NCBI GenBank assembly: GCA_963716795.1
Contig: CAVQUE010000015.1
Span: 754,069 to 818,068, forward strand
Direction of reading: 5' to 3'
Length of the DNA stretch: 64,000 nucleotides
From: an uncultured Acidimicrobiaceae bacterium
GTDB lineage: Bacteria; Actinomycetota; Acidimicrobiia; Acidimicrobiales; UBA8592
Made by a program: the position numbers and the translations under genes. Below, one piece after another: positions 14,377-39,850 of the stretch. The first letter of the stretch is position 1, and each line of letters begins with the position of its first letter. The notes under the pieces were generated by a model, which worked only from the letters and a program-made list of their open reading frames with translations, made no database searches and was not told where the DNA came from.

Positions 14377-17300
14377 GTGGACGCCCTCGATGGATTCTCC
14401 GCTCCGGCGCGGGCGTGGTTCTCGACCACCTTCGTCGAGCCCACGGCAGCCCAGGCCGGGGCCTGGCCCGCCATCGCGTCCGGCGACCACACGCTCGTCC
14501 TCGCACCCACCGGCTCGGGCAAGACCCTGGCCGCCTTCTTCTGGGCACTCGACGCGATCATGACCGCACCGCCGCCCGAGGATTCGTCGAGGCGGACGCG
14601 GGTGCTCTACATCTCGCCGCTGCGCGCGTTGGCCGTGGACGTCGAGAAGAACCTGCAATCGCCCCTGCGAGGCGTGCAGCTGGCAGGCGAGCGTCTCGGC
14701 GAACCGGTGCAGCCGGTCACGGTTGCGATCCGCAGCGGCGACACCCCGGCCGATCAGCGTCGCAAGCTGATCCGCAACCCGCCCGACGTATTGATCACGA
14801 CACCCGAGTCGCTCTACCTGATGCTGACCTCGAAGGCGCGCGAGACGTTGCGATCGGTCACCCACGTGATCATCGACGAGATCCACGCCATGGCTGCCAC
14901 CAAACGTGGCGCCCACCTCGCACTCACCCTGGAACGACTGGCCGAGATCTGCGAGGTCGAGCCCCAACGCATCGGGCTCTCTGCGACCCAACGTCCCCTC
15001 GAGGAGATCGCTCGCTTCCTCGGGGGGCACACCGCGACCGGACCGCGACCGGTGACCATCGTCGACGCCGGTGCCGCACCCGACCTCGATCTCGAGGTCG
15101 TCATTCCCGTCGAGGACCTCGGCGCCATGGGAGACATCGTCGACGAGCCCACCAGCGGACCCCTTGCAGCCGGGCCGGTCCGTCGGTCGATCTGGCCCGC
15201 CATGCACCCGCGTCTGTTGGAGCTCATCCGCGAACACCGCTCGACGCTCGTCTTCGTCAACTCGCGTCGTCTCGCCGAGCGCCTGGCCATCCGCCTCAAT
15301 GAACTCGAGGCAGCCGACGAGGAGCGTCGACGCCTCGATGCGCTGAACGCAACCGAGCGTGCCGAGGAACTGGCCCGGACCCACGGGCTGCCGCCACCGG
15401 CGGTCGACCTCGTCCGTGCCCACCACGGGTCGCTCAGCCGCGAGAAGCGCCTCGAGATCGAAGACCGCCTCAAACGCGGGGACCTCGCCGCCTTGGTGTG
15501 CACCAGCTCGCTCGAGCTCGGCATCGACATGGGCGCCGTCGATCTCGTCGTTCAGGTCGAATCGCCTCGCTCGGTCGCGAGCGGTCTCCAGCGCGTCGGA
15601 CGCGCCGGCCACCAGGTCGGCGAGACCAGCAAGGGCAAGGTCTTCCCGAAGCATCGCAGCGACCTGGTGGAAGCCACCGTCGTTGCCCGCCAGATGCGGC
15701 GCGGCGCCATCGAGGAGACCCACATCCCGCGCAACCCGCTCGACGTGTTGGCCCAACAGATCGTCGCCATGACCGCGATGGAGGACTGGTCGGTGCCTGC
15801 CCTGCGGGATCTCGTGCGGCGGTCGGCCAACTTCGCAGAACTCTCCGACGACGTGTTCGCAAACGTGCTCGACCTGTTGTCGGGCCGCTACCCGTCCGAA
15901 GCCTTCGCCGAACTCCGCCCCCGCATCGTGTGGGACCGCATCGAGGACACGGTCCGCGCCCGCGCCGGGGCCCAGCGTCTCGCCGTCACCAGCGGCGGGA
16001 CGATCCCCGACCGCGGCCTCTTCGGGGTGTTCCTGCCCGACGGCACCCGGGTCGGCGAACTCGACGAGGAGATGGTCTACGAGAGTCGGCCCGGCGAGAC
16101 GTTCCTGCTCGGTGCGAGCACCTGGCGCATCGAGGACATCACCTTCGAGCGCGTGGTCGTCACCCCCGCCCCCGGCGAACCGGGCAAGATGCCCTTCTGG
16201 CACGGCGACGGTCCCGGCCGCCCGTTCGAGCTCGGTCGAGCCATCGGCGAATTCCTGCGAAGCGCCCGCACCACGGACCTGCGCGACCGGCTCCTGGACG
16301 AGTACTGCCTCGACGAGATGGCCGCCGACAACGTCATCGGCTACCTCGAGGAGCAGATCGAGGCCACCGGTGTGCTGCCCGATGACCGGACCATCGTCGT
16401 CGAGCGCTTCCCCGACGAGATCGGCGACTGGCGCATCTGCATCCTGTCGCCCTTCGGAGCCCAGGTCCACGCTCCGTGGGCGATCGCGCTGCGCGCATCG
16501 CTCAACGAATCGCTCGGCCGCGACGTCGAGCTGATGTGGAGCGACGACGGCATCGTGATCCGCCTCCCCGAAGCGGTCGACGACATCCCACTCGACGCGC
16601 TCGTGCCCGACGCAGGCGCCGTCGAGGACCTCGTGATCGAACAGCTCCCTTCCACTGCGATGTTCAGCGCTCGCTTCCGCGAATGCGCCGCTCGGTCACT
16701 GCTGTTGCCTCGCCGTCGGCCCGACCAGCGCACCCCGCTGTGGCAACAGCGCCAACGCGCCGCCGACCTGTTGGCGGTCGCCGCCGATCACCCCGACTTC
16801 CCGGTGCTGCTCGAGACCACCAGGGAATGCCTCAACGACGTGTTCGACCTCCCCGGCCTCAAGACGCTCTTGGCCGATGTCGCCCGCCGGGTGGTGCGCG
16901 TCGTCCCCGTCGAGACCCCGAAGGCGTCGCCCTTCGCGCAGTCGCTGGTTTTCGGGTGGATCGCCGTCTACATGTACGAAGGCGACGCGCCCCTCGCCGA
17001 GCGGCGAGCGACGGCGCTGTCGCTCGACCGCGACCTGCTGCGCGACCTTCTCGGCGCCGAAGAACTGCGCGAGCTCATCGACGCCGACGTCCTGGCCGAT
17101 CTCGAACTCGAACTGCAGCGCCTCGTCGACGGCCGCCGCGCCCGCGACGGCGATGAGGTGCACGATCTGCTCCGGACGCTCGGCCCGCTCGACCGCGTGG
17201 CGCTCGGGGTGCGGGTCACCGACGACGACCAGCTCGACGAGTGGCTCGCCGAGCTCGCCGTCGAACGACGCATCATCGACGTGACGGTCGCCGGCGCCCG

Positions 17301-18897
17301 ACGATTCGCTGCCGTCGAGGATGCCGCCCGCCTCCGCGACGCACTCGGCGTCGCCCTCCCCCCGGGGCTGCCGGCTGCCTTCACCGAGCCGGTCGACCGG
17401 CCTGTCCACGACCTCGTCGCCCGCTACGCCCGGACCCACGGACCCTTCACCGAACGAGAGGTCGCCGGCTGGTTGGGTCTCGGCATGGACCGCGTCCACA
17501 CCGTGCTCAACGATCTCCAGAGCGACGCAGTCGTCACCTCCGGGGAGTTCCGTCCGGGAGGCAGCGAACGCGAATGGTGTGATGAAGACGTCCTCCGTCG
17601 CCTCCGACGTCGGTCGCTGGCCGCGCTGCGCCACGAGGTCGAACCCGTCGACCCCGATGCGTTCGCCCGGTTCCTGCCGCTGTGGCAGGGCGTCGGCCGA
17701 AACCGGCGCGGCACCGACGCCGTCGCCGAAGCCCTGACCGCCCTCGAGGGCGCCCCGCTGGTGGCCTCGTCGCTCGAGCGCGACGTGCTCGCCGCACGCG
17801 TGGTCGACTACCGGCCATCGATGCTCGATGAGCTGTGCACCAGTGGCGAGGTCATCTGGACGGGCGCGGGAGCCCTCGGCACCCGCGACGGGCGGGTCCG
17901 GGTCGTGTTCCGCGACCACCTCGCGCTCGTCGCCCCGACCGCCGATGACACCCCCGACGGACTCGATCACCAGGCAATCCTCGACCATCTCGCCATAGCC
18001 GGCGCCTCGTTCTGGCCCGACGTGCTCGCAGCCGTGACGACCGCGGTCGGCCACATCGACGAAGCCGCTGCGCTCGCTGCCCTGTGGGATCTCGTGTGGG
18101 CGGGGCTCGTGACCAACGACTCGCTCGGCGCGCTGCGGTCCCGCATCGCGGGATCGGGCCGCGGCGCCCGCAAGCGGTCGGGCCGACCCCGCCCCGGGCA
18201 ACTGCGTCGAGTCGGACCACCATCGGCGTCGGGTCGCTGGTCGCTCGTCTCGTCGCTCGCCGGACGCGACGTCGACCCGACCATCGCCGCACACACCCGG
18301 GCCATGCAACTGCTCGAACGTCATGGTGTCGTGACCCGTGAAGCGGTACTGGCCGAGGGCGCACCCGGCGGCTTCGCCGGCGTCTATCCCGTCCTCAAGG
18401 CGCTCGAGGAACAGGGCAAGGTCCGTCGCGGCTACTTCGTCGCGGGCCTCGGCGCCGCCCAGTTCGCCCTGGCCGGGGCCGTCGATCGGCTCCGCGACCA
18501 GCGAGAGTCCGGTCTCGACGAGGTCACCTTGTTGGCGGCAACCGATCCCGCGCAGCCCTACGGCGCGGCGCTCGCCTGGCCGCCATCGGCGGGTCGTCCC
18601 GCCCGGAGCGCCGGCGCCCACCTCGTGCTCGTCGGCGGACATCCCGCCGCCTTCGTCGAGCGTGGCGGGCGCAGCATCGCCACCTTCGGTGACGTCGCGA
18701 CCGAGGCCTGGGCAGCACCGCTGGCCGAGGCCGTCCTCAGCCGTCGTCTCGGGCCGCTCGAGGTCTCCCGCATCGACGGAGCACCGGCTCCCGAAGCCGC
18801 CGCCGCCGAGGCCCTGTTGGGTGCCGGGTTCGTGCGCGGCTACAAGGGACTGGTGCTGCGCCCGGGTCGCGCCGCTGCCGACGCCGCGTCCCGCTGA
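14377..18897 (+). CDS. lhr: Large ATP-dependent helicase Lhr
   Basis: 1506 aa. AQAGAWPAIASGDHTLVLAPTGSGKTLAAF, DEIH box (VIIDEIHAM), HHGSLSREKR, plus the long Lhr-specific C-terminal extension. GTG start. Confidence 0.95.
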   Translation: MDALDGFSAPARAWFSTTFVEPTAAQAGAWPAIASGDHTLVLAPTGSGKTLAAFFWALDAIMTAPPPEDSSRRTRVLYISPLRALAVDVEKNLQSPLRGVQLAGERLGEPVQPVTVAIRSGDTPADQRRKLIRNPPDVLITTPESLYLMLTSKARETLRSVTHVIIDEIHAMAATKRGAHLALTLERLAEICEVEPQRIGLSATQRPLEEIARFLGGHTATGPRPVTIVDAGAAPDLDLEVVIPVEDLGAMGDIVDEPTSGPLAAGPVRRSIWPAMHPRLLELIREHRSTLVFVNSRRLAERLAIRLNELEAADEERRRLDALNATERAEELARTHGLPPPAVDLVRAHHGSLSREKRLEIEDRLKRGDLAALVCTSSLELGIDMGAVDLVVQVESPRSVASGLQRVGRAGHQVGETSKGKVFPKHRSDLVEATVVARQMRRGAIEETHIPRNPLDVLAQQIVAMTAMEDWSVPALRDLVRRSANFAELSDDVFANVLDLLSGRYPSEAFAELRPRIVWDRIEDTVRARAGAQRLAVTSGGTIPDRGLFGVFLPDGTRVGELDEEMVYESRPGETFLLGASTWRIEDITFERVVVTPAPGEPGKMPFWHGDGPGRPFELGRAIGEFLRSARTTDLRDRLLDEYCLDEMAADNVIGYLEEQIEATGVLPDDRTIVVERFPDEIGDWRICILSPFGAQVHAPWAIALRASLNESLGRDVELMWSDDGIVIRLPEAVDDIPLDALVPDAGAVEDLVIEQLPSTAMFSARFRECAARSLLLPRRRPDQRTPLWQQRQRAADLLAVAADHPDFPVLLETTRECLNDVFDLPGLKTLLADVARRVVRVVPVETPKASPFAQSLVFGWIAVYMYEGDAPLAERRATALSLDRDLLRDLLGAEELRELIDADVLADLELELQRLVDGRRARDGDEVHDLLRTLGPLDRVALGVRVTDDDQLDEWLAELAVERRIIDVTVAGARRFAAVEDAARLRDALGVALPPGLPAAFTEPVDRPVHDLVARYARTHGPFTEREVAGWLGLGMDRVHTVLNDLQSDAVVTSGEFRPGGSEREWCDEDVLRRLRRRSLAALRHEVEPVDPDAFARFLPLWQGVGRNRRGTDAVAEALTALEGAPLVASSLERDVLAARVVDYRPSMLDELCTSGEVIWTGAGALGTRDGRVRVVFRDHLALVAPTADDTPDGLDHQAILDHLAIAGASFWPDVLAAVTTAVGHIDEAAALAALWDLVWAGLVTNDSLGALRSRIAGSGRGARKRSGRPRPGQLRRVGPPSASGRWSLVSSLAGRDVDPTIAAHTRAMQLLERHGVVTREAVLAEGAPGGFAGVYPVLKALEEQGKVRRGYFVAGLGAAQFALAGAVDRLRDQRESGLDEVTLLAATDPAQPYGAALAWPPSAGRPARSAGAHLVLVGGHPAAFVERGGRSIATFGDVATEAWAAPLAEAVLSRRLGPLEVSRIDGAPAPEAAAAEALLGAGFVRGYKGLVLRPGRAAADAASR

Positions 18898-19269: not shown

Positions 19270-19467
19270 ATGGACACCATGCTGAACACCTACGTCAAGC
19301 TGACCAGCGCTCTCGCCGCAATGCGTGAGCAGGAGCGTGGCGCCACCGCCGTCGAGTACGGCCTGATCGTGGCGCTCATCGCCGCCATCATCATCGGCGT
19401 CGTCGCCACCCTGGGCACCAAGGTCAACGACAACTTCCAGAAGGTCGCCAACAACATCCCCGACTGA
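19270..19467 (+). CDS. flp: Flp family type IVb pilin (prepilin)
   Basis: 65 aa. The leader ends ...REQERG, followed by ATAVEYGLIVALIAAIIIGVVA (Flp motif G/ATAVEYGL). AAGGGG sits upstream of the ATG. Confidence 0.9.
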   Translation: MDTMLNTYVKLTSALAAMREQERGATAVEYGLIVALIAAIIIGVVATLGTKVNDNFQKVANNIPD

Positions 19468-19507: not shown

Positions 19508-19546
19508 AGCCGGGTCCTCTTCGGAGGGCCCGGCTTTGGTGGTTTT
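19508..19546 (+). terminator. Intrinsic terminator-like hairpin after flp
   Basis: AGCCGGGUCCUC-UUCG-GAGGGCCCGGCU: a 12-bp stem with one G-U pair and a UUCG tetraloop, followed by UUGGUGGUUUU. Confidence 0.6.
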
Positions 19547-19796
19547 CGGTTCGAGAGGAAACCGAACCTCTCGAACCGAGTTGGATTCGAGCGGCTGACG
19601 CCGCGCTGTGGCTTTCGGTTCGAGAGGAAACCGAACCTCTCGAACCGAGTTGATCGGAGCGGCTGACGCCGCGCTGTCTTGCGTGAACCGACCGAGCAAG
19701 TAGCTCGGTTCACGCTGGGGGAACCGCCGGAGGCCGTCCCCCCAGGCCCCCTCGCTGGCGGCCTCCAGGCCTCCGCGGGAACACGCCGAGCGCCCC
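19541..19796 (+). repeat. Leader modules of a composite repeat element: two 69-bp direct repeats each carrying hairpin H1, then hairpin H2 and a GC-rich connector
   Basis: Copies at 19541-19609 and 19610-19677. H1 is UCGGUUCGAGAGG-AAACCGAA-CCUCUCGAACCGA (13 bp), at 19546-19579 and 19615-19648. The conserved GAGCGGCTGACGCCGCGCTGT follows. H2 is GTGAACCGACCGAGC-AAGTA-GCTCGGTTCAC at 19683-19713. Confidence 0.8.
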
Positions 19797-20538
19797 GAGC
19801 AGGGCCGTAGTGGCCCGGGACAGGTCGGCGCTCTCCGCTGCTCCCGAGACGGCTGGGCATCCCGGTGGAGGGTTTCGGTATCCCCGTGGCCGTCTCGGCT
19901 GGTCGCTGCTGCTGCGCAGCACGCCGACACCGGCCGGCGACGTGCGCCCCGGCTCGAGCGTGCGACGAGGCCGAGCCAGGGGATCCCGGCGCGTGGGAGC
20001 CGGAGACGAGCCGGCCCAGCAACATCGCGCACCGTCCAGGGCCGCAGTGGCCCGGGACAGGTCGGCGCTCTCCGCTGCTCCCGAGACGGCTGGGCACCCC
20101 GCCAAAGGGTTTCGGCACCCCCGAGCCGTCTCGGCTGGTCGCTGCTGCTGCGCAGCACGCCGACACCGGCCGGCGACGTGCGTCCCGGCTCGAGCGTGCG
20201 ACAACCACAAACGGGGGATCCCGGCGCGTGGGCGCCGGAGACGAGCCGGTCCAGCAACACCGGGGGATCCCGGCGCGTGGGCGCCGGAGACGAGCCGGCC
20301 CAGCAACACCGCGTACCGTCCAGGGCCGCAGCGGCACGGGACAGGTCGGCGCTCCGCGCCGCTCCCCGAGACGGCTGGGCACCCCGGTGAAGGGTTTCGG
20401 TACCCCCGAGCCGTCTCGGCTCGACGCTGCTGCTGCGCAGCACGCCGACACCGGCCGGCGACGTGCGCCCCGGACAGGGCGTGAGACGAGGTCGAGCCGG
20501 GGGATCCCGGCGCGTGGGAGCCGGAGACGAGCCGGCCA
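19797..20538 (+). repeat. Tandem array of three about 235-bp GC-rich units, one carrying a 49-bp internal duplication; non-coding
   Basis: Phase markers GGATCC at 19981, 20216, 20265 and 20502. Each unit contains CCGAGACGGCTGGGCACCCC-N6-GGGTTTCGGnACCCC..GCCGTCTCGG (10-bp inverted arms), then GCTGCTGCGCAGCACGCCGACACCGGCCGGCGACGTGCG and GGATCCCGGCGCGTGGG(A/C)GCCGGAGACGAGCCGGCCCAG. Confidence 0.85.
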
Positions 20539-20655
20539 GGAGACTAGGCACTCCTTCCCATTCGGCGGGTCCGATGGCTCAACTACACCCACCGACTGCC
20601 GATTGAGGGCCCGGATGCGATGCGGGTCACGGCGACGTGCCTGCCCTCGGAGAGG

Positions 20656-21489
20656 ATGCAGATGAGACGAAGAGTGATTGCGCTCGTGGCGGCGGTTCTG
20701 CTCGCCGGCGTGGGGACGATGGTGCTGGTGGGTTTCGTGCAGAGCGCCGAAGAGCGTGCGGTCGCGGGCCAAGAGCTCGTGGCCGTCCTCCAGGTCCGTG
20801 CGGATGCGACGGTTCCCCAGGGCACATCGTCCGAAGAGATCGCCCCGTTGATCGAGGTGGTCGAGGTTCCGGCCCAGGCCAGAGCGGTCGGAGCGATCAC
20901 CGATCTGGGCGAAGTGGCCGGACTGGCCACCGCAGTGGACCTCGTGCCCGGTGAACAGCTCATCGCAGCCCGGTTCGTCGAGGCTGCAGAGGTCCAGGCC
21001 GATCGCCGTGAAGACCTTCCTCGTCGCCGGGTCGCCGTGCCCGACGGCATGCTCGAGGTGCCGATCCGCCTCGATGCCGTCAGCGCGCTGGGCGGCATCA
21101 TCGATGTCGGCGACACCGTTGCGATCGTCGCCTCGTTCGCCAACTACACCGGCGACACCCAGGGCACGGTCACCGTCGACGATCAGGTCGTCGCCGTGCC
21201 CCAGAGTGCCGGTGAGGGAGGCGCAGGCCAGGCCACCAAGATGCTGATCGAGAACGCATTGGTCATCGAGGTGCAGGCCGACACGGCACCGACGTTCGTC
21301 GACGACGCCTCTGGCGAGGTCGTCTTGGCACCTGCGTCGAACTTCCTGGTCACGTTTGCCCTCGAGCCCAACGACGTCGAGCGCCTGATCTTCGCCACCC
21401 AGTACGGCACGCTCTACCTGGCGCAGCAGACCCCCGACGATGTCGGCGAGGGCAGCATCGTCACCATCGAGAACATCTTCCGGGACTGA
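20656..21489 (+). CDS. cpaB: Flp pilus assembly protein CpaB/RcpC (SAF domain)
   Basis: N-terminal TM RRRVIALVAAVLLAGVGTMVLVGFV, then a SAF-like region (AVDLVPGEQLIAARF) and the CpaB C-terminal domain. The start may be ATG 20656 or 20662; GGAGAGG lies upstream. Confidence 0.85.
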   Translation: MQMRRRVIALVAAVLLAGVGTMVLVGFVQSAEERAVAGQELVAVLQVRADATVPQGTSSEEIAPLIEVVEVPAQARAVGAITDLGEVAGLATAVDLVPGEQLIAARFVEAAEVQADRREDLPRRRVAVPDGMLEVPIRLDAVSALGGIIDVGDTVAIVASFANYTGDTQGTVTVDDQVVAVPQSAGEGGAGQATKMLIENALVIEVQADTAPTFVDDASGEVVLAPASNFLVTFALEPNDVERLIFATQYGTLYLAQQTPDDVGEGSIVTIENIFRD

Positions 21490-21493
21490 TCCG

Positions 21494-22675
21494 ATGATCC
21501 TCCTGCTCACGCCAGAAGAGAGCTTCGTCCCGTTCCTCCAGGGTCTGGTGGGCAACGGGGTGGAGATCTCGCGCAAGTGGGATCCGGGATGGCGCGACGC
21601 GCAGCCGATCGACGTCGTGCAATCGACGGTTCATCCGCTGCCGGACATCGTCATCATCGGCCCCACGGTGCCCGAGGCCGTGGCACTCGAATGGGCCGGT
21701 GCCTTCGATCGCGAGCAGCCCGAGGTCGGGCGGCTCATCATCGCTCCCGCCACGCCGGACCTGTTGATGGGTGCGATGCGGCTCGGTGTGCGCGAGGTCG
21801 TACCGCCGAACGCGGCAGCCGATCAGATTCGCGAGGCGGTCGACCGCCTCCTCGGTGCTGCGGCACGGCTGAAGACGTCGCGTCCGGCCAGCGAAGAATC
21901 CCATCCCACGAACCGGGTCATCACGGTGCTGTCCGCCAAGGGCGGTAGCGGGAAGACGGTCGTGGCCACCAATCTGGCGCAGGGACTCAATGCCGAGTTC
22001 CCGGGGCAGGTCGTGCTCGTCGACATGGACATCCAGTTCGGCGACTGCGGCGCCACGCTCAACCTCGAGCCGGAGCAGACGCTCGCCGACGCTGCGCTGA
22101 ATGCGTCGGTGCTCGATGCGACGACGCTCAAGGTCTTCTTGACGCCCCACCCCAGTGGCTTGTTCCTGATGGGTCCGCCGCAGTCGCTCGTCGACGCGGC
22201 CGAGATCACCACCCAGCAGGTCAAGGCGATCCTCGACCTGTTGACGGGAATCTTCGACTACGTCGTCATCGACACCGCATCGGGCATCGATGATCACGCC
22301 ATCACCTCCATGGAGTTCTCGACCGATCTGGTCCTCGTGACCTCGTCGGAGGTGCCGAGCGTCAGGGCGCTGCGGCGCCAGGTCGAGACGCTCGACACCA
22401 TCGGCATGACCCGTCAAGCCCGTCATTTCGTCGTGAACCGTGCCGGAACCCGGGTCGGTCTGCGCACGAGCGACATCGAGGACACGGTGGGAATCGAGGC
22501 CGAGATCGAGATCCCGAGCTCGCGCCAGGTCGTCCTGTCCACCAATCAGGGCAGCCCGATCGTGATGAGTTCACCGAAGGACCCTGCGGCCCGCGCGCTG
22601 CAGGAGTTGGTCGATCTGTTCCTACCCGACAAGCCCGAGGATTCTCGGGGTCGGCGAAAGAGAGGGAAGCGATGA
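21494..22675 (+). CDS. cpaE: CpaE/TadZ-type pilus assembly ATPase (receiver-like N-domain plus MinD/ParA ATPase)
   Basis: Deviant Walker A VITVLSAKGGSGKTVVATNLA, with VLVDMDIQFGD. Start at ATG 21494 (MILLLTPEE), 5 nt after the cpaB stop. Confidence 0.85.
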   Translation: MILLLTPEESFVPFLQGLVGNGVEISRKWDPGWRDAQPIDVVQSTVHPLPDIVIIGPTVPEAVALEWAGAFDREQPEVGRLIIAPATPDLLMGAMRLGVREVVPPNAAADQIREAVDRLLGAAARLKTSRPASEESHPTNRVITVLSAKGGSGKTVVATNLAQGLNAEFPGQVVLVDMDIQFGDCGATLNLEPEQTLADAALNASVLDATTLKVFLTPHPSGLFLMGPPQSLVDAAEITTQQVKAILDLLTGIFDYVVIDTASGIDDHAITSMEFSTDLVLVTSSEVPSVRALRRQVETLDTIGMTRQARHFVVNRAGTRVGLRTSDIEDTVGIEAEIEIPSSRQVVLSTNQGSPIVMSSPKDPAARALQELVDLFLPDKPEDSRGRRKRGKR

Positions 22676-24078
22676 AGCTCGGAGCCATGCTTCGCCAGGC
22701 GGGACAGGACGGCAACCTCCCTGCGCAGCCGACGCCGGTTGCGCCCGCCGAACGTATCGACGAGGACGACGAGCCGATCCATCGCGTCCTCGACCCGATG
22801 CAGATCCTCAAGACCCGGGCACAGGAGCAGCTGTTCCGGCGGCTCGGGTCGCGTCTGTACGACTCGTCGATGAGCCAGGAGCAGCTCCAGACCCTGGTGG
22901 CCCAAGAGCTCGACGAGGCGATCAAGTCCGAGTCCACGCCGCTGAGTCCCGAAGAGCGGCAGCGTCTCGTCACCGCGGTCCGCGATGACATATTGGGCTA
23001 CGGCCCCATGGAGCAGTTCCTCGCCGATCCGTCGGTGTCAGAAGTCATGGTCAACGGCGACGATGCGATCTACATCGAGCGCAGCGGCAAGCTCCAGCTG
23101 ACCGACGCCCGTTTCGTCTCGAACGACCATCTGCGTCGCGTCATCGAGCGCATCGTCTCCAAGGTCGGACGCCGCATCGACGAGTCGTCGCCGATGTGTG
23201 ACGCCCGCCTGCCCGATGGCTCTCGCGTCAACGCGATCATCCCGCCGCTCGCCGTGCGCGGCCCTGCCCTGACGATTCGTAAGTTTGCAAAGAAGAAGCT
23301 CACAGTCGAGGACCTGATCGAAAAGGGCGCCTTCACCCGTCAGACCGGCGAGTTCCTCGAGGCATGCGTGCTCGGTCGACTCAACATCATCGTCTCGGGT
23401 GGTACCGGTACCGGCAAGACGACGATGCTCAACCTGTTGTCGGGCTTCATCCCCGATGACGAACGCATCGTGACGATCGAGGACTCCGTGGAGCTCCAAC
23501 TCCGCCAGCGCCACGTCATCACGCTGGAGACCCGTCCGCCGAACGTCGAAGGCAAGGGTGCAGTCGAGATCCGTGACCTGGTGAAGAACTCACTGCGTAT
23601 GCGCCCCGATCGCATCGTGGTCGGCGAGTGTCGTGGCGGCGAGACCCTCGACATGTTGCAGGCCATGAACACCGGCCACGAAGGATCGTTGTCGACGGTC
23701 CACGCGAACAACGCCCGCGACACCTTGTCCCGTATCGAGACCATGGTGCTCATGGCCGGTATGGACCTGCCGGTGCGGGCGATCCGCGAACAGGTGGCCT
23801 CCGCGGTCGACATGATCGTGCAGCTGAGCCGCCTTCGTGACGGCAGCCGCCGAGTCACCCAGATCACCGAGGTGGTCGGCATGGAGGGTGATCGCATCAC
23901 CATGGCCGACCTGTTCAAGTTCGACTTCTCGGCCGGGTTCACCCCCGAGGGCCACTTCGCCGGCGGCCTCGAAGCCACCGGCGTCCGGCCGATGTTCACC
24001 GAGCGTCTCGCGGACCACGGCATCGAGTTGCCCGCCGAGATGTTCGCCATAGCGAACGATCCCTTCGGACGGCGGTGA
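22672..24078 (+). CDS. cpaF: CpaF/TadA secretion ATPase
   Basis: 468 aa. SPMCDARLPDGSRVNAIIPPLA..GPALTIRKF, Walker A IVSGGTGTGKTTMLN, and the RIVVGECRGGE box. ATG overlaps the cpaE stop (ATGA). Confidence 0.95.
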   Translation: MKLGAMLRQAGQDGNLPAQPTPVAPAERIDEDDEPIHRVLDPMQILKTRAQEQLFRRLGSRLYDSSMSQEQLQTLVAQELDEAIKSESTPLSPEERQRLVTAVRDDILGYGPMEQFLADPSVSEVMVNGDDAIYIERSGKLQLTDARFVSNDHLRRVIERIVSKVGRRIDESSPMCDARLPDGSRVNAIIPPLAVRGPALTIRKFAKKKLTVEDLIEKGAFTRQTGEFLEACVLGRLNIIVSGGTGTGKTTMLNLLSGFIPDDERIVTIEDSVELQLRQRHVITLETRPPNVEGKGAVEIRDLVKNSLRMRPDRIVVGECRGGETLDMLQAMNTGHEGSLSTVHANNARDTLSRIETMVLMAGMDLPVRAIREQVASAVDMIVQLSRLRDGSRRVTQITEVVGMEGDRITMADLFKFDFSAGFTPEGHFAGGLEATGVRPMFTERLADHGIELPAEMFAIANDPFGRR

Positions 24079-26243
24079 CGATGACGGCCCCGGCCCCGAC
24101 CACGTTGGGTCGGCGTCGCCGAATCCTGGCGTTGCTGCTGGGGCTCGCGGTGTCGATCGCCATGGTGACCCCTGCCGTCGCGCAGGACCGGCCCGGCCCT
24201 GCCCCCGGAGACGGGGGCGAGACCGTCGCGGTCGAGGTCGACGAATCGGGTGACACCTTCGTCGACACCGCTCCGTCGGTGCCGGTCGACACCGGACCCG
24301 CCGCGTCCGTCGACGGTGGCGGTGCCGACGTGGCAGATCCCGCCGGAACGCAGGCATCGACGGACGGTGTTGCGGCCGGTGCGGTCGACGACGGCGACCG
24401 CACCATCCAGATCCTCGAGAGCGACGTGGCCGGGTATCCCTCGGTATCGCTGGTCGCGGCGGTGCCGCCTGCGCTCGCAGGCGATCTCCGCAGCGACTCG
24501 TTCGGCCTCACCGAGAACGGCAACTCGCGCTTTCTCGATGTCGTGAAGCTGCGCGACACCATCGAGGTCGTCGTCGTCATCGACACCTCCGGCTCCATGG
24601 CCGGTGCGCCGATCGATGCAGCCACGGCTGCGGCGTCGGACTTCGTGTCCTCGCTCGATCCCGAGACGCGGGTTGCCGTCATCGGCTTCGGCGCCGACGT
24701 CGAGACCGCCGCGGGCTTCGACTCGACCCGGCGTGCCACCAACGCCGCCATCGATGGCCTCGAAGCCGGAGGCGAGACGGCGCTCTTCGACGCGCTCACC
24801 GCGGCCGCGCAGGCCTTCGGTCCCGGCGACAGCCGTCGGTTCGTCGTCGTGCTCTCCGACGGCACCGATACCGCGAGCTCCGCAACGCTCGAGGAGGCAG
24901 CGGCTGCGCTGGAGGCCAGCACCGCTTCGCTCTATGCGATCACCCTCCAGTCCGACGAAGCGGACTTCCGCGGCATTCGCGACCTCGCAGGTCGCGTCGA
25001 CGGCCAGGTCGTCGGCGCCAACGATGCCGAGTCGCTCGACGAGGTCTACGCCGCCATCGCCAGCCGGTTGACCAACCAGTATCGGGTCAGCTACGAGTCG
25101 CGCGCCACCGATGTCGCGTCGGTGGTGCTCTCCGTCGAAGCCGGCGGTGTCCTGGCAACCGCCGCAGACGAGATCGACCTCGGTGTGGCCTCGCCCAGCA
25201 CGTCTGCAGACGGCGACACCGCTGCCTCACCGGTCATCGCAATCGGCGAACCGACCGTCGTGCAGGCTCCCGAGACCGGCTTCTTGCAGTCCTCCATGGC
25301 GCTATACCTTGGCGGCGCGGTGCTGTTCTTGTCGATCGGCCTCGTCTTGTTCATCGCGATGTCGGTCGAGCCCAAGGGCCCGTCGGCCATGGAGCGGCTC
25401 AACAAGAGTCGCCAGTCGGTGAAGGCGGACCGAACCAGCGGATTGTCCTCGCTCGCCAACCGGGCCAGCTCGGTCGCCGAGCGGGTACTCGAGAAGCAGT
25501 CCAGACGGGGCGCACTCGACGCGAATCTCGAGAAGGCCGGCATGGACATGCGGCCCGGCGAATACATCGTTGCGTCGATGGGTGCTGCGCTCGGCGTCGC
25601 GGCGCTCGGCTTCGTGATGATGGGCGCGCTCCCTGGTCTGATCGGTCTGGTCGTCGGCTTGCTGGGGGGCCGGATGGTCCTCAAGCGCAAGGTGTCGAAG
25701 CGCCAGAAGAAGTTCGGCGAGCAGCTCGGGGACACGTTGATGATGATCGCCGGCAGCCTGCGTGCCGGTCACGGCATCGCCGAGGCGCTCGACGCCATCG
25801 CCAACCAGGCCGACTCGCCCACCGCAGAGGAGTTCAGTCGTGCCGTTTCGGAATCGCGCATCGGGCGCGACATGGTCGATTCGCTCTACGACATCGCCGA
25901 CCGGACCGGCAACGAGGACTTCGTGTGGGTGGTGCGGGCCATCTCGATCAACCGGGAGCTCGGCGGCGACCTCGCCGAGATCCTCGACAACGTCGGCGAG
26001 ACGATTCGCGACCGCAATCGGCTTCGTGACCAGGTCCGGGCGCTGTCAGCAGAAGGCAAGGTCTCGGCGCTGATCCTGTTCGCCATGCCCGTCCTCGTCG
26101 CGATCTGGGTCCAGATCTCGAACCCGGAGTACATGGCGTCGATGACCGACGAGACGGCCGGCAAGTTCGTCGTCGGCTTCGCCGTGATGTTGCTGGTGGT
26201 CGGCGGGGCCTGGCTCAAGAAGCTCGTGAACGTGGAGTTCTGA
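24075..26243 (+). CDS. tadB: Fusion protein: signal peptide plus von Willebrand factor A domain plus TadB (T2SS-F family) membrane platform domain
   Basis: Signal-like RRRRILALLLGLAVSIAMVTPAVAQ. vWA MIDAS VVVIDTSGSMAG...ETALFDAL...VVLSDGTDT. The C-terminal half has TM helices and the T2SSF motif FGEQLGDTLMMIAGSLRAGHGIAEAL...DFVWVVRAISINRELGGDLAEILD. GTG overlaps the cpaF stop. Confidence 0.85.
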   Translation: MTMTAPAPTTLGRRRRILALLLGLAVSIAMVTPAVAQDRPGPAPGDGGETVAVEVDESGDTFVDTAPSVPVDTGPAASVDGGGADVADPAGTQASTDGVAAGAVDDGDRTIQILESDVAGYPSVSLVAAVPPALAGDLRSDSFGLTENGNSRFLDVVKLRDTIEVVVVIDTSGSMAGAPIDAATAAASDFVSSLDPETRVAVIGFGADVETAAGFDSTRRATNAAIDGLEAGGETALFDALTAAAQAFGPGDSRRFVVVLSDGTDTASSATLEEAAAALEASTASLYAITLQSDEADFRGIRDLAGRVDGQVVGANDAESLDEVYAAIASRLTNQYRVSYESRATDVASVVLSVEAGGVLATAADEIDLGVASPSTSADGDTAASPVIAIGEPTVVQAPETGFLQSSMALYLGGAVLFLSIGLVLFIAMSVEPKGPSAMERLNKSRQSVKADRTSGLSSLANRASSVAERVLEKQSRRGALDANLEKAGMDMRPGEYIVASMGAALGVAALGFVMMGALPGLIGLVVGLLGGRMVLKRKVSKRQKKFGEQLGDTLMMIAGSLRAGHGIAEALDAIANQADSPTAEEFSRAVSESRIGRDMVDSLYDIADRTGNEDFVWVVRAISINRELGGDLAEILDNVGETIRDRNRLRDQVRALSAEGKVSALILFAMPVLVAIWVQISNPEYMASMTDETAGKFVVGFAVMLLVVGGAWLKKLVNVEF

Positions 26244-26286: not shown

Positions 26287-27207
26287 ATGGGTATCGAGAT
26301 CTATCTCGCAGCCTTTGCGATCATCGTCGCGATTCCGATCGCGCTGATCGGCATCGCGGGCCCGGATCGGCTCAGCTCGACCGGCTCGTCGGCATCGGGT
26401 CGGCTCCGTCCGAGCGGTCCGTTGAGCATGCGCGACATGCGCCTGCAGCAACGCACCTCGGATCGGCTGCTGGCGCCGATGGTCAACGGGGTGGCCGGCA
26501 GGATGCGCCGGTTCACGCCCACGGGCGCCATCGAGGAGATGGAGCGCCGGATCAACGTCGCCGGCATGGCCTCCACGTGGACCGTCGAACGTCTGCTCGC
26601 CACCAAGCTCGGCTTCGCGACGGTGGGTGCGGCGGTGGCGTTGTACCTGCTGGTGTCGAACTTCTCGTTGCGCCAGATCGTCCTGTCCGGCCTCATCGCG
26701 GCCGGCTCGTACCTGTTGCCCGACATGAGCCTCGATCGTCGGGCGAAGGACCGGGCCAAGCTCATCGAACGCGAACTCCCGGATGTCTTGGACCAGATGA
26801 CGATCGGTGTGGAGGCCGGCCTCGGATTCGATGCGGCCCTCGCCCGCGTGGCGCGTGAGAACGAGGGCCCCCTCGCCGAGGAATTCGGTCGGATGATGCA
26901 GGACCGCCAGCTCGGCATGTCACGCGAAGAAGCGTTCGAGCGGGTCACCGTCCGCAGCGAATCGGCTGACCTGAAGCACTTCGTGCTGGCGTTGACCCAG
27001 GCCGACAAGCACGGCATGCCGCTCGCCACGGTGTTGCGGGTCCAGGCCGACGAGATGCGCCAGAAGCGTCGCGTCCGCGCCGAGGAGAAGGCGTTGTCGC
27101 TGCCCATCAAGCTCGTGTTGCCGCTGGTGCTGTGCATCTTGCCGGCGCTGTTCACCGTGATCATCGGCCCGGCGGCGTTCCGACTGATGTCGGGCGGCCT
27201 GGCCTGA
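26287..27207 (+). CDS. tadC: TadC (T2SS-F family) pilus platform protein
   Basis: 306 aa. ELPDVLDQMTIGVEAGLGFDAALARV...LKHFVLALTQADKHGMPLATVLRVQADEMRQKRR...PIKLVLPLVLCILPALF. Confidence 0.88.
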   Translation: MGIEIYLAAFAIIVAIPIALIGIAGPDRLSSTGSSASGRLRPSGPLSMRDMRLQQRTSDRLLAPMVNGVAGRMRRFTPTGAIEEMERRINVAGMASTWTVERLLATKLGFATVGAAVALYLLVSNFSLRQIVLSGLIAAGSYLLPDMSLDRRAKDRAKLIERELPDVLDQMTIGVEAGLGFDAALARVARENEGPLAEEFGRMMQDRQLGMSREEAFERVTVRSESADLKHFVLALTQADKHGMPLATVLRVQADEMRQKRRVRAEEKALSLPIKLVLPLVLCILPALFTVIIGPAAFRLMSGGLA

Positions 27208-28418
27208 TGGCACCGGGCCCACAGACGGCTGCGGTGACCTCACCCTGGGTCGCCGCGCCAACCGGCGAGCCGTCTGGCATGCCGGTGACGGCCGCGCAGC
27301 GTCAGACGACGATGCAGCCACAGCCGCAGGCGCAGTCGGCCGCTGATCGAGTTCGACCATCTGTGCCCGTCGCCTCTCCTGCTCACGCCGCGGCGCTGCC
27401 AGGCTCCATGCCCGATTCGGTGCGGGCCGGCCTGGTCAGCGCCTCCCCGCGTACCTCGCGCGATGTCCTGGCGGGCATCATCCATCGCCGCGCCGCCATC
27501 CCCGGCGTCGATGGTCGTCTCGCGACCTCCTTCGATCCGCTCGACGCCGTGTTGGGCGGCGGGTTCGTTCCCCAGGATCTGGTCCTGCTCGGCGGTAAGC
27601 CCGGTGTCGGCAAGACGATCGCATTGGTCCAATGGGCACGCAGCTTCGCGGTCGCAGGCCATCGCGTGGTGTTCGCGAGCTACGAGCTCAGCGAATCGAA
27701 TTTGCTGGGTCGCCTGTTGACCTCCGAGATCGGGACACGAAGCCGGCACCTGCCCGAAGAGGATCGCCGCAGCGTCACCCGCGTCATCCGGGATTCGGTC
27801 CGGTCGGGTTCGGTGTCCGACGATCCGATGGTGCGATCGGTGATCCGCCAGGCATACGACTCGATCGACGACTACGCCGACCGGCTCCTGTTGCAGCGGG
27901 TGTCGGGCCATCACACCGGCCCGGCAGAGCTCGCTGAACTGGCAGCCGAGTGGGTGGGCCCCGGCGGGGTCCTGGTGGTCGACTATCTCCAGAAGGTGCC
28001 GGTCAAAGGGGCCAAGGACGACAGCGACCGGGTGCTCACCGTCGCCGAGAGTCTGAAGGAGACGGCGTTGACCCACGATGTGTGCGTCGTCGCCGCAGCA
28101 GCGGTCAGCGCCGATGGCCTGGGTCATCGCCGGCTGCGTCTCGAGCATCTGCGCGGGAGCGCCCTGCTCGCACACGAGGTCGATCTCGCGATCGCGATGA
28201 ACGAAAAGCACACCGCGCTGTCGAAGACGCACCTGGCCTATGACCCGCACCTGTTCGAGTCGGCCCAGCACCAGGTCGTCTTCTCGATCGAGAAGAACCG
28301 TGAGGGCCCCGCCAATGTGCACCTGGAGTTCTCCAAGCAGTTCGAGGACTATCGCTTCGACCCCGATGGCGGGTACGTCATGCAGCGGCTGACCGACGAC
28401 GTCTTCGACGAGAGTTGA
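27207..28418 (+). CDS. RecA-superfamily ATPase (DnaB C-terminal / KaiC-like core) with a disordered about 130-aa N-terminus
   Basis: ATG 27207 overlaps the tadC TGA (TGATG). Walker A LVLLGGKPGVGKTIALVQWA, Walker B GVLVVDYLQKV, then LKETALTHDVCVVAAAAVS...LRGSALLAHEVDLAIAMNEK...SIEKNREGP. The N-terminus is Pro/Ala/Gln-rich. Confidence 0.8.
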   Translation: MAPGPQTAAVTSPWVAAPTGEPSGMPVTAAQRQTTMQPQPQAQSAADRVRPSVPVASPAHAAALPGSMPDSVRAGLVSASPRTSRDVLAGIIHRRAAIPGVDGRLATSFDPLDAVLGGGFVPQDLVLLGGKPGVGKTIALVQWARSFAVAGHRVVFASYELSESNLLGRLLTSEIGTRSRHLPEEDRRSVTRVIRDSVRSGSVSDDPMVRSVIRQAYDSIDDYADRLLLQRVSGHHTGPAELAELAAEWVGPGGVLVVDYLQKVPVKGAKDDSDRVLTVAESLKETALTHDVCVVAAAAVSADGLGHRRLRLEHLRGSALLAHEVDLAIAMNEKHTALSKTHLAYDPHLFESAQHQVVFSIEKNREGPANVHLEFSKQFEDYRFDPDGGYVMQRLTDDVFDES

Positions 28419-28520
28419 CGCAGCGCGGCACGCCCATGGCGGTGACCGTGGTCGCCTCATCGCGACCGACGCGCACCCGATCGATCGGGTCCGGCCAACG
28501 GCGGCCGGTCCGGTCCGTTC

Positions 28521-28560
28521 GTCGGGGTGGGGCGCCCGGGCGGGGCTGCCCCACCCCGAC
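28521..28560. terminator. Bidirectional terminator-like hairpin between convergent genes
   Basis: GTCGGGGTGGGGC-N14-GCCCCACCCCGAC, a 13-bp perfect stem, between the stops at 28418 (+) and 28575 (-). Confidence 0.55.
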
Positions 28561-28574
28561 GGAACAGCCGAGGG

Positions 28575-38221: not shown

Positions 38222-38644
38222 TCAGTTGTCAGGAATGGTCGAGTCGTCGCCGGCTGCAGGGTCGTCCTCGACACCACCCGCAGCGGGCGGCTCGGCCGGA
38301 ACCTGCTCGCCGCTCGACTCCGGAATGGTGACCACGTCGCCGACCTGAATCGTGTTGGGGTCGGTGATCTGGGGATTCGCCGCCAGCAATTCGTCGAGGC
38401 TCAGGCCGAAACGCTGTGCAACCGTGCTGAGCAGGTCGCCGGCCTCGATCGTGTAGCTGAGTTCTTCGGGTTCGATGACCACCGGAACCGCGGTCGGGGT
38501 GGGGACGACGATCTCGGCGAGCACCTCCGGTGTGACGTCTTCGGGACGCTCGGCGTTGGTGGGCTCGTCATCGCCCCCGCAACCGGCCCCGATCGTGGCC
38601 ACGACCAGTGCACCTGCCATCACCAGCGCGCTGCCCTTGCGCAT
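38222..38644 (-). CDS. LysM-domain lipoprotein
   Basis: Lipobox LVVATIGAGC-GG. LysM YTIEAGDLLSTVAQRFGLSLDELLAANPQITDPNTIQVGDVVTIP. Confidence 0.88.
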   Translation of the reverse strand: MRKGSALVMAGALVVATIGAGCGGDDEPTNAERPEDVTPEVLAEIVVPTPTAVPVVIEPEELSYTIEAGDLLSTVAQRFGLSLDELLAANPQITDPNTIQVGDVVTIPESSGEQVPAEPPAAGGVEDDPAAGDDSTIPDN

Positions 38645-38719
38645 CGAACCAACCCCTGTAGCCGTCGAGCGACGGCATGGTAGCCCACGACGGCGCGCCG
38701 CCGCCGGGCTCGGATGTCC

Positions 38720-39079
38720 TCACGCGGTACCGGACGGGATGCGGTCCTTCGGCCACACCGCACCTGCCCCCTCCATGGCATCGATCAGCTCCTCGAGCGG
38801 GTCGCTGCCCGCGCCGAACCCATCGGTGGCGGCGAGGTGGTCGAAGAGCACCCGCATCGCCGTGGCGAGCCCCGCAGGTTGCGGGACGTTGCGGTGCACG
38901 CACCACTCGGACAGCTCGATCCACCACAGGCGCCAGACGTCCTCCTCGGTGAAGGTCGTCGGTCCCCTGCGGACGTCGGCACACGCCAACACGACCGTCA
39001 TCGCGTCGAAGTCGCAGCACACCCCGGTGCGCAGCGCCCACCGTGCCACCGCCGGCGCGGGTGGTCCGGGCATCGACAC
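38720..39079 (-). CDS. Hypothetical protein
   Basis: 119 aa. ...TTFTEEDVWRLWWIELSEWCVHRNVPQPAGLATAMRVLFDHLAATDGF.... Coding-like bias, no family recognised. Confidence 0.45.
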   Translation of the reverse strand: MSMPGPPAPAVARWALRTGVCCDFDAMTVVLACADVRRGPTTFTEEDVWRLWWIELSEWCVHRNVPQPAGLATAMRVLFDHLAATDGFGAGSDPLEELIDAMEGAGAVWPKDRIPSGTA

Positions 39080-39203
39080 TCAACCGGGCGACATCGCGCG
39101 CTCGTCGCGCGGACGCACCCCGGGTCGGAGCGTCACCAGTGGGAACCGGGCGAAGATGTGTCGTCGTCATGGTCCCGAGTATGCGGAGGGGGTGTGACAC
39201 TCG

Positions 39204-39700
39204 TTTCTGGGCCGGCTCGTCTCCGGCGTGCTCGCGCCGGGATCCTCGGTCTGGTGACGTCGCACGGTTGGTCCGGTGTGTACGTCGCCGGCTGGTGTCG
39301 GCGTGCTGCGCAGCAGCGGCGCCGGCCGAGACGGCCACGGGGGTGCGGAAACCCTTTGTCGGGGTGCCCAGCCGTCTCGGGTGGGGCGGGAGCGCCGACG
39401 TGTCTGGGGCCGCTGTGGTGCTGGTGGTGCGCGGTGTTTCTGGGCCGGCTCGTCTCCGGCGTGCCTGGCGCCGGGATCCTTCGGGTTGGTGACGTCGCAC
39501 GGTTGGTTCCTGCTGTACGTCGCCGGCTGGTGTCGGCGTGGTGCGCAGCAGCGGCGCTGGGCCGAGTCGGCCACGGGGGTGCCCAGGTGACCCACCGGGG
39601 TGCGTCGCCGTCTCGGGGGAGGCGGGTGCGCCGACGGGTGCCGCCCGGCGGCGGCGGCCTGGCTTCGAGCGCTGTGTCCGGGCACGCGGTTGCCTGGGAG
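39204..39700 (-). repeat. Second copy, in inverted orientation, of the about 235-bp tandem unit array (about 2 units)
   Basis: GGATCC phase markers at 39240 and 39474 (234-bp period). The reverse complement aligns block-for-block with 19797-20538: GGATCCCGGCGC, CCGGAGACGAGCCGGCCCAG, CCCGAGACGGCTGGGCACCCC, GGGTTTC, CCGTCTCGG, GCTGCTGCGCAGCACGCCGACACC. The array ends at the same unit position as the left array. Confidence 0.85.
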
Positions 39701-39850
39701 CCGCCAGCGAGGGGGTCCGGGGGACGGCCTCCGGCGGTCCCCCCGGCGTGAACCGAGCTACGTGCTCGGTCGGTTCACAAGAGACAGCGCGGCGTCAGCC
39801 GCTCCTTCAGAAAACTCGCTTCGAAAGGTTCGTTTTCCTTTCGAAGCGAA
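39701..39850 (-). repeat. Leader modules of the inverted copy: connector, H2, and a single H1 hairpin
   Basis: H2 at 39748-39778, H1 at 39816-39849. On the minus strand H1 reads UCGCUUCGAAAGG-AAAACGAA-CCUUUCGAAGCGA (13 bp), followed by GUUUUCU. It starts 8 nt after the stop of the upstream minus-strand gene. Confidence 0.8.

Follow-up and report, generated by a model that had tools for sequence, protein, structure and literature searches.

What a DnaB-like ATPase adds to a bacterial pilus machine is the question raised by a Tad/Flp pilus locus of an uncultured Acidimicrobiaceae bacterium, in which the gene directly behind tadC encodes an ATPase of the RecA superfamily. The locus lies in a stretch of 64,000 nucleotides, the whole of which is here called the window (GenBank assembly GCA_963716795.1, contig CAVQUE010000015.1, positions 754,069 to 818,068 of the forward strand; positions given below are those of the window). 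The host genome (G000) is a high-GC genome of 5.26 Mb that is 73% complete, and its nearest relatives are metagenome-assembled genomes (MAGs) of the Acidimicrobiia/Acidimicrobiales. Tad (type IVc) pili are described with one motor, TadA/CpaF, and a positioning ATPase, TadZ, and the minimal Tad set of monoderm bacteria consists of TadA, TadB, TadC, Flp, and TadZ (PMC11300603). Since TadZ is also encoded in the operon studied here, the ATPase is a third NTPase and not a replacement. We found its gene to be a conserved, operon-embedded companion of tadC in Actinomycetota and not a chance neighbor, and full-text searching of the literature did not turn up any account of a gene of this kind at a Tad locus.

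A first-pass annotation of the window had proposed that the gene starts on the tadC stop codon and had suggested a survey of homologues for linkage to tadC; both the overlap and the linkage were confirmed. The tadC stop codon TGA (27205-27207) and the ATG of the ATPase gene (27207-27209) have base 27207 in common (TGATG), and translational coupling recurs. Three homologues on long contigs (42 to 70% identity) all directly follow tadC in rcpC-tadZ-tadA-(vWA)tadB-tadC operons. A class sample of 301 genomes contained 19 loci in 17 carriers, representing 10 of 136 genera, and at 17 of these loci tadB-tadC is immediately upstream on the same strand; the remaining two are an intact orphan and an N-terminally truncated remnant. 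A scan with one genome per GTDB species gave at least 540 relatives, the best 80 of which were examined. Upstream sequence of at least 1.3 kb was available for 65 of them. At 55 of these loci the ATPase gene, with homologues that are 38 to 76% identical, immediately follows tadC, and 6 adjoin a divergent flp-tadE/G-rcpC-tadZ-tadA-tadB cluster, giving 61 Tad-linked loci in total (94%); the other 4 are without a tad gene in the fetched flank.

In the loci with the divergent arrangement (L059, L067, L069, L071, L081, and L049), a gene for a NarL/LuxR-type response regulator is convergent with the ATPase gene and immediately downstream of it. The hits are all from MAGs. Tad-ATPase loci of the Acidimicrobiia type were also found in MAGs labeled Bifidobacterium breve, Bifidobacteriaceae, and Acidobacteria (L057, L078, L058, and L105), and these labels are probably binning or naming errors.

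The frame from 27207 to 28418 comprises 403 translated codons and is free of internal stops. The longest possible open reading frame (ORF) for the ATPase begins upstream, at the in-frame GTG at 27132; the ATG at 27207 is supported as the start by a 92%-identical homologue (P0002), whose alignment with the ATG form begins at residue 1. A scan of the + strand at the tadC-ATPase junction revealed no promoter-like or terminator-like site. Downstream of the ATPase gene there is no conserved partner gene, the 3' neighbors being unrelated housekeeping genes, and the ATPase gene is therefore the terminal gene of the operon. Like TadZ/CpaE, its product is a cytoplasmic accessory NTPase from a tad operon, but TadZ has a ParA/MinD fold and a localization role.

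The protein had been described in the first-pass annotation as having a DnaB_C/KaiC-like core, and the DnaB half of this description is the one that stood. Pfam DnaB_C matched over the whole domain (E value, 2.5e-20; 73 bits; model positions 2 to 253 of 255), whereas the Pfam KaiC family "ATPase" (6e-7; 29.5 bits) matched only the N-terminal half and was just over the threshold, as was AAA_25 (7e-7). Every NCBIfam model of DnaB, RadA, or KaiC scored far under its cutoff. In a PDB-sequence search with a profile built from 20 family members, DnaB (2vye; 2e-22) was first in the single-domain ranking, with KaiC at 1e-16 and RadA at 2e-12, and G40P (3bgw) was aligned across profile positions 13 to 314. 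The AlphaFold2 model has a confident core, with a predicted local distance difference test score (pLDDT) of mostly 85 to 97 from residue ~100, and the top 50 Foldseek matches in the PDB were all DnaB-family helicases, the isolated G40P ATPase domain giving a template modeling score of 0.80. Judged from these profiles and the modeled fold, the ATPase consists of a linker helix and a RecA motor domain of the DnaB type (superfamily 4 [SF4]/RecA fold).

The two nucleotide-binding motifs named in the first-pass annotation, Walker A (GGKPGVGKT) and Walker B (VLVVDYLQ), were both found where expected, the core of the latter (V255-LVVDYL-Q262) being encoded by nucleotides 27969 to 27992. Over the 118 rows of the family alignment, K136, T137, E160, D259, R309, D326, K334, K363, R365, G367, and G388 are invariant, and because the catalytic residues are among them an active ATPase is predicted, with sites that would be completed between subunits. 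In DnaB, the linker region joins neighboring subunits of the ring. The long disordered Pro/Gln-rich N terminus that had been noted was also recovered in the model; residues 1 to 78 have a pLDDT of <50 and are missing in most homologues (320 to 350 amino acids long), and this part is therefore regarded as disordered and not conserved. The Tad-linked family, which has DnaB_C only and a length of ~330 amino acids, is recognized by the motifs LQWAR, YE, VDYLQK, R-x6-LRGS, and EKNRxG and by a C-terminal FRFxPxG. The window protein scored 498.6 bits against the family profile A1, of which it is itself a row. A whole-library search with the profile gave 292 cluster representatives (50% identity) at an E value of ≤1e-30, well apart from 30,715 generic matches at 1e-10.

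When the DnaB of the same genome was aligned with the ATPase, the shared elements were the linker-helix region, Walker A, the H1a glutamate, VDYLQ, the basic loop RRLRLEHLRGS (DnaB, KRPMLSDLRESG), the LR.S...E.D loop, and KNRxG (KxRxG); the comparison structures were those of Geobacillus DnaB (4esv/2r6a) and phage SPP1 G40P (3bh0/3bgw), and the corresponding Pfam family is PF03796. The helical domain PF00772 forms the DnaB collar and binds primase. Unlike DnaB, the ATPase gave no match to this N-terminal domain in the Pfam search, the glutamine of the H3 motif SQLSR is replaced by Ala or aliphatic residues throughout the 118 rows, and the gene is located in a pilus operon. The ATPase has also gained a ~20-amino-acid helical insert, an 8-amino-acid insert with the invariant K334, and a conserved, structured C-terminal beta-tail of 20 amino acids. 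RadA/Sms is likewise a DnaB-like ring ATPase without the DnaB N-terminal domain and with a KNRxG motif, and it acts in recombination during transformation. However, the ATPase lacks the zinc finger and the Lon-like C-terminal domain of RadA/Sms, and its match to RadA is confined to the Walker A region (TIGR00416 covers residues 103 to 166 only).

It had been anticipated that a clear DnaB profile would mark the protein as an unrelated replicative or phage helicase. The fold is indeed that of DnaB, but the N-terminal domain is missing, the score against TIGR00665 is 64.1 bits versus a cutoff of 385.25 bits, and the true dnaB of the genome is elsewhere (G000:C15:120089-120856; canonical, 494 amino acids, 359 bits). 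The genome also has its own radA at another place. A replicative, phage, or plasmid helicase is ruled out by the absent N-terminal domain, the scores far under curated cutoffs, and the separate dnaB. The plasmid search gave no match at 1e-10, the phage search gave a single weak match (33% identity), and the matching PHROG_19 is a generic DnaB-like family. A defense system component is also ruled out, PADLOC giving only mad8 at an E value of 0.003. The source annotations name the homologues either "DnaB-like helicase C-terminal domain-containing protein" or "replicative DNA helicase." The latter is a routine misannotation in the wider DnaB paralogue family, which is entirely uncharacterized.

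Kinship with ArlH and KaiC, as envisaged in the first-pass annotation, was not supported. Both the profiles and the predicted fold place the ATPase with DnaB C-terminal domains, with lower scores for KaiC, and there was no ArlH/FlaH entry among the NCBIfam, PDB-profile, or Foldseek matches listed. Like ArlH/FlaH, the protein is a single RecA-fold ATPase whose gene shares an operon with those of a secretion ATPase (TadA family) and a platform protein (TadB/C family), the order here being tadA, tadB, tadC, and the ATPase gene. However, it comes from another branch of the RecA superfamily, and ArlH is universal in archaella, whereas the ATPase is present in ~12% of the Tad-bearing genomes of the class. 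FlaH binds FlaI and is required for motor assembly, and a regulatory role has been predicted for the KaiC-family ATPases of archaeal type IV pilus loci (PMC4858521). Such loci also combine a RecA-superfamily ATPase and a vWA module with a TadA/TadC-type core (Makarova et al. 2016, PMC4858521), but in the locus described here TadB carries the vWA domain as a fusion and the ATPase is of DnaB origin. By analogy, an ArlH-like role for the ATPase is possible.

The Tad pili of these Actinomycetota probably have an undescribed extra ATP-driven part. The explanation that we tentatively prefer, and that falls a little short of being probable, is a hexameric ring ATPase that is made with the platform proteins and acts on the TadA/TadBC base, resembling ArlH in role and not in ancestry. 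The ATPase would be coproduced with the platform proteins through its translational coupling to tadC, and the DnaB-like linker helix would allow it to form a hexamer with ATP sites between subunits. This hexamer could dock on the Tad motor from the cytoplasmic side, either on the TadA ring or on the cytoplasmic domains of TadB-TadC or on both, where ATP binding and turnover would adjust how the pilus motor is assembled, in which direction it runs, or how active it is. The role would parallel that of ArlH for ArlI/ArlJ but would have been reached independently, with a DnaB paralogue in place of KaiC as the starting point. The ATPase is an optional add-on, most Tad systems of the class running without it. 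A weak hint of coevolution with TadA was obtained by a mirror-tree analysis of pairwise distance matrices from 38 loci with all six genes, in which partial correlations control for the other four proteins. The ATPase tracks TadA best (r = 0.83; partial r = 0.43, the maximum of the matrix), and the partial r for the ATPase and TadC is 0.03. This is also an indirect hint at binding to the secretion ATPase, which for ArlH is nucleotide dependent.

Several observations weigh against this motor-partner reading. The mirror-tree hint is weakened by two confounders, the phylogeny that the proteins share and the slow, clean way in which TadA evolves. In the class sample, TadC was found in 132 of the 301 genomes and the ATPase in 17, with both present in 16; 16 of the 17 carriers therefore also have TadC, but the presence of the ATPase in only 16 of 132 TadC-bearing genomes makes it an accessory of a subset (~12%). 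The second Tad locus of the same genome (L107; G000:C3:267391-273290), which comprises rcpC, tadA, a plain tadB, and tadC, has neither the vWA domain nor the DnaB-like ATPase. The basic loop (R309 and R316) is kept in every context, and, as far as the alignment indicates, a regulator would explain this no better than a motor that handles DNA or a polymer. In addition, relatives of the ATPase were identified outside Tad loci, and these weaken the idea that the whole family is part of Tad. In a sample of 301 Chloroflexota genomes with 38 carriers, 20 loci were fetched and 19 of them had no tad gene within 8 kb. Three full-length relatives on long contigs are surrounded by unrelated housekeeping genes with no flanking tad genes, and the orphan copies of the Acidimicrobiia, which form one clade in the tree described below, are intact.

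A core Tad/Flp component was considered and is ruled out, the ATPase being absent from most TadC-bearing genomes and from the second Tad locus of the genome. Strict pairing of the ATPase with the vWA-TadB fusion was ruled out as well: the fusion is common without the ATPase, and five carriers from a single genus (g68) have a plain TadB. The fusion and the ATPase are regarded as independent because each occurs without the other in the class. The fusion is not peculiar to this locus: for most TadB matches in the 301 genomes, the alignment begins at residue ~100 to 165 of the fusion protein, whether the ATPase is present or not. The TadA of the second Tad locus matches as two pieces that overlap, a sign of either a frameshift or an error in the assembly.

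The absence of synteny with tad genes, which the first-pass annotation had named as a sign of an unrelated neighbor, is not the pattern in Actinomycetota, where 61 of 65 loci are linked, but is the rule in the Chloroflexota loci (19 of 20 unlinked). Linkage to Tad in every phylum is ruled out by these sampled loci. At 17 of the 20, the gene order is ftsH, the ATPase gene, and a gene for a LigT-like 2H phosphoesterase (L108-L124 and L126; G323, G461, G359, and others), and this ftsH-adjacent, high-GC clade is apparently Limnocylindria. The Chloroflexota carriers encode Tad systems at other sites, and TadA is present in 35 of 38 carriers versus 142 of 263 noncarriers (odds ratio, 9.9; Fisher p = 2e-6), although this test overstates independence because most carriers belong to one clade. 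Two distant family members, P0181 and P0186, retain the DnaB N-terminal domain, and >2,000 relatives of P0181 at an E value of ≤1e-40, many of them 490 to 590 amino acids long, combine the C-domain hallmarks of the family with a preserved DnaB N-terminal domain. New here is that the family reaches beyond Tad, both to the ftsH-adjacent Chloroflexota clade and to these ~500-amino-acid relatives with the DnaB N-terminal domain. The full-length paralogues P0181, P0186, P0274, and P0289 (L128-L130) occur in housekeeping contexts of apparently diderm bacteria and are uncharacterized.

In a maximum-likelihood tree of the 118 family rows and two DnaB C-terminal domains, the family was separated from the DnaB domains as one clade (support, 100/100). 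The Chloroflexota rows, including the forms bearing DnaB_N, also formed one clade (100/100), as did the loci with the divergent tad arrangement (96/80). With the DnaB root, the Chloroflexota clade is nested in a grade of Tad-linked Actinomycetota. However, this rooting is unreliable, and no context is called ancestral, because the outgroup branch is very long (4.48 substitutions per site) and a warning of long-branch attraction was raised. It is no less plausible that the root lies among the full-length forms, in which case the N-terminal domain would have been lost before the recruitment to tad.

The main rival explanation is a DNA motor at the pilus base, in which a ring with the translocation machinery of DnaB, functionally analogous to ComFA or RadA, would thread single-stranded DNA and would drive or process DNA taken up or transferred via the Tad pilus; we consider it doubtful, though not far-fetched. 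The ATPase descends from a DNA helicase, with a DnaB-like fold and motifs, and the loop aligned to the DnaB sequence KRP...LRESG is basic and conserved in 118 of 118 rows whatever the context, although it is the alignment with DnaB that suggests DNA binding by this loop. In DnaB, the H3 glutamine couples the ATP site to DNA binding, and its loss throughout the family argues against such a motor, as does the missing N-terminal collar domain; no isolated DnaB C-terminal domain is known to work as a helicase, but relatives in the clade do retain the DnaB N-terminal domain. The genomic contexts are similarly divided. In Chloroflexi bacterium CFX3 (L099 1-8428), a 436-amino-acid member is divergent from a block of genes for a bifunctional nuclease, a canonical DnaB, a DnaD-like protein, and a DnaC/IstB-like helicase loader, with ComEC adjoining the block, and one of the three full-length relatives is near a gene for a RecD2-type helicase. 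Both are single cases, and the CFX3 arrangement could reflect either a duplication of dnaB from which the gene arose or a role related to DNA. Natural transformation that depends on Flp pilus biogenesis has been reported for Actinobacteria (PMC4322843), the best NCBIfam family of TadA is TIGR03819 ("conjugal transfer-associated ATPase"), and an Lhr helicase gene adjoins flp; however, it is tadC to which the ATPase gene is coupled, and neither comEC nor comEA, and competence genes are not a recurrent feature of the best 80 loci. In a wider version, which we think unlikely, Actinomycetota Tad pili would be DNA uptake or transfer machines with a DnaB-derived pump for single-stranded DNA at the platform, a bacterial counterpart of ComFA or of the archaeal Ups/Ced pairing that was built from a paralogue of the replicative helicase, and the ftsH-adjacent and full-length relatives would represent the ancestral DNA-handling enzyme.

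The same relatives could also mean that the gene is a hitchhiking housekeeping paralogue with a Tad-independent job in replication restart, repair, or quality control, placed near tad for convenience of expression or by chance fixation. The ftsH-adjacent Chloroflexota copies (17 of 20), the orphan Acidimicrobiia copies, and the full-length forms among housekeeping genes would agree with this, and the catalytic and loop residues are identical in all contexts. Absence of the gene from most Tad systems points the same way, but the linkage to Tad has been kept over 38 to 76% identity and in two arrangements, behind tadC and divergent from flp, the translational coupling recurs, 16 of the 17 class-sample carriers have TadC, and the Chloroflexota carriers are enriched in TadA at the odds ratio given above (in related genomes that are not independent). 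We regard a hitchhiker as decidedly unlikely. A KaiC-like autokinase or signaling switch, that is, an autophosphorylating timer or a regulator of tad expression or pilus cycles and not a mechanical partner, seems highly improbable. Regulators from the KaiC ATPase family have been predicted at archaeal type IV pilus loci (PMC4858521), and a NarL/LuxR response regulator adjoins the gene in the divergent arrangement, but the Pfam KaiC match is weak (29.5 bits, N-terminal half only), and the ATPase is of the DnaB and not the KaiC type. No KaiB- or kinase-type partner is conserved nearby, and a nonrigorous look at the position of the KaiC phosphosite identified no conserved Ser/Thr pair.

If the ATPase is a partner of the Tad motor, as we tentatively prefer, its operon would supply a third, conserved ATPase, and the Tad machine of a large group of environmental Actinomycetota would be run differently; this would be the second independent recruitment of a RecA-fold ATPase to a type IV filament motor, after ArlH of the archaellum. 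What a ring ATPase adds to a core of secretion ATPase and platform proteins becomes a testable question. If the ATPase handles DNA instead, it would provide a mechanistic link between Tad pili and gene transfer in a phylum whose competence machinery is poorly known.

TABLE 1 Features of the Tad/Flp locus and of its DnaB-type ATPase in the window
Feature	Positions	Strand	Basis or remarks
flp prepilin gene, 65 amino acids, with G/ATAVEYGL processing motif; first gene of the locus	19270-19467	+	Translation read
rcpC/cpaB	20620-21489	+	Pfam RcpC, 2.7e-12
tadZ/cpaE, ParA/MinD-type ATPase	21440-22675	+	Pfam ParA/AAA_31/CbiA; NCBIfam CpaE_hom_Actino, 2.9e-16, under its cutoff
tadA/cpaF, secretion ATPase	22672-24078	+	Pfam T2SSE, 6.8e-69; best NCBIfam TIGR03819, 349.5 bits, under the 373-bit cutoff
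vWA domain fused to tadB platform protein	24075-26243	+	Pfam VWA and T2SSF
tadC, platform protein	26287-27207	+	Pfam T2SSF, 1.1e-22
Stand-alone DnaB-C-terminal-type ATPase (predicted), 403 amino acids; last gene of the operon	27207-28418	+	Sequence, Pfam, NCBIfam, PDB profile, fold
Disordered Pro/Gln/Ala-rich N terminus, residues 1-78	27207-27440	+	pLDDT <50; absent from most homologues
Helix, residues 84-93, aligned to the DnaB linker region	27456-27485	+	Model; profile alignment begins at DnaB residues ~154-157
Walker A, G129-GKPGVGK-T137	27591-27617	+	K136 and T137 in 118/118 family rows
E160, equivalent of the DnaB H1a catalytic Glu	27684-27686	+	118/118 family rows
Walker B/DnaB H2 motif, V255-LVVDYLQ-K263	27969-27995	+	D259 in 118/118 rows
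Basic loop, R309-LRLEHLRG-S318, aligned to DnaB KRPMLSDLRESG	28131-28160	+	R309 in 118/118 rows, R316 in 106/118
E362-KNRE-G367, DnaB/RadA-type KxRxG with presumed arginine finger	28290-28307	+	K363, R365, and G367 in 118/118 rows
GC-rich hairpin between the convergent ATPase and FtsX-permease genes	28518-28563		RNA fold, -57.8 kcal/mol; z = -4.0

The coordinates of the locus are collected in Table 1. The hairpin behind the ATPase gene has no U-tract and was missed by the terminator scan, which is based on T runs; it is probably a bidirectional terminator of the U-tract-less kind. The top NCBIfam family of TadA, TIGR03819, for which the score is just short of the cutoff, is now named "TadA family conjugal transfer-associated ATPase." Its original name was "helicase/secretion neighbourhood ATPase." A gene for a 1,506-amino-acid Lhr-type helicase (14377-18897) lies directly upstream of flp, and the same arrangement is found in the related contig L007. 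Between flp and rcpC, the locus contains a repeat block. The spurious long ORFs at 19541-20538 and ~38568-39850 expose repeated peptide-like units, which represent a hairpin-rich family of intergenic repeats.

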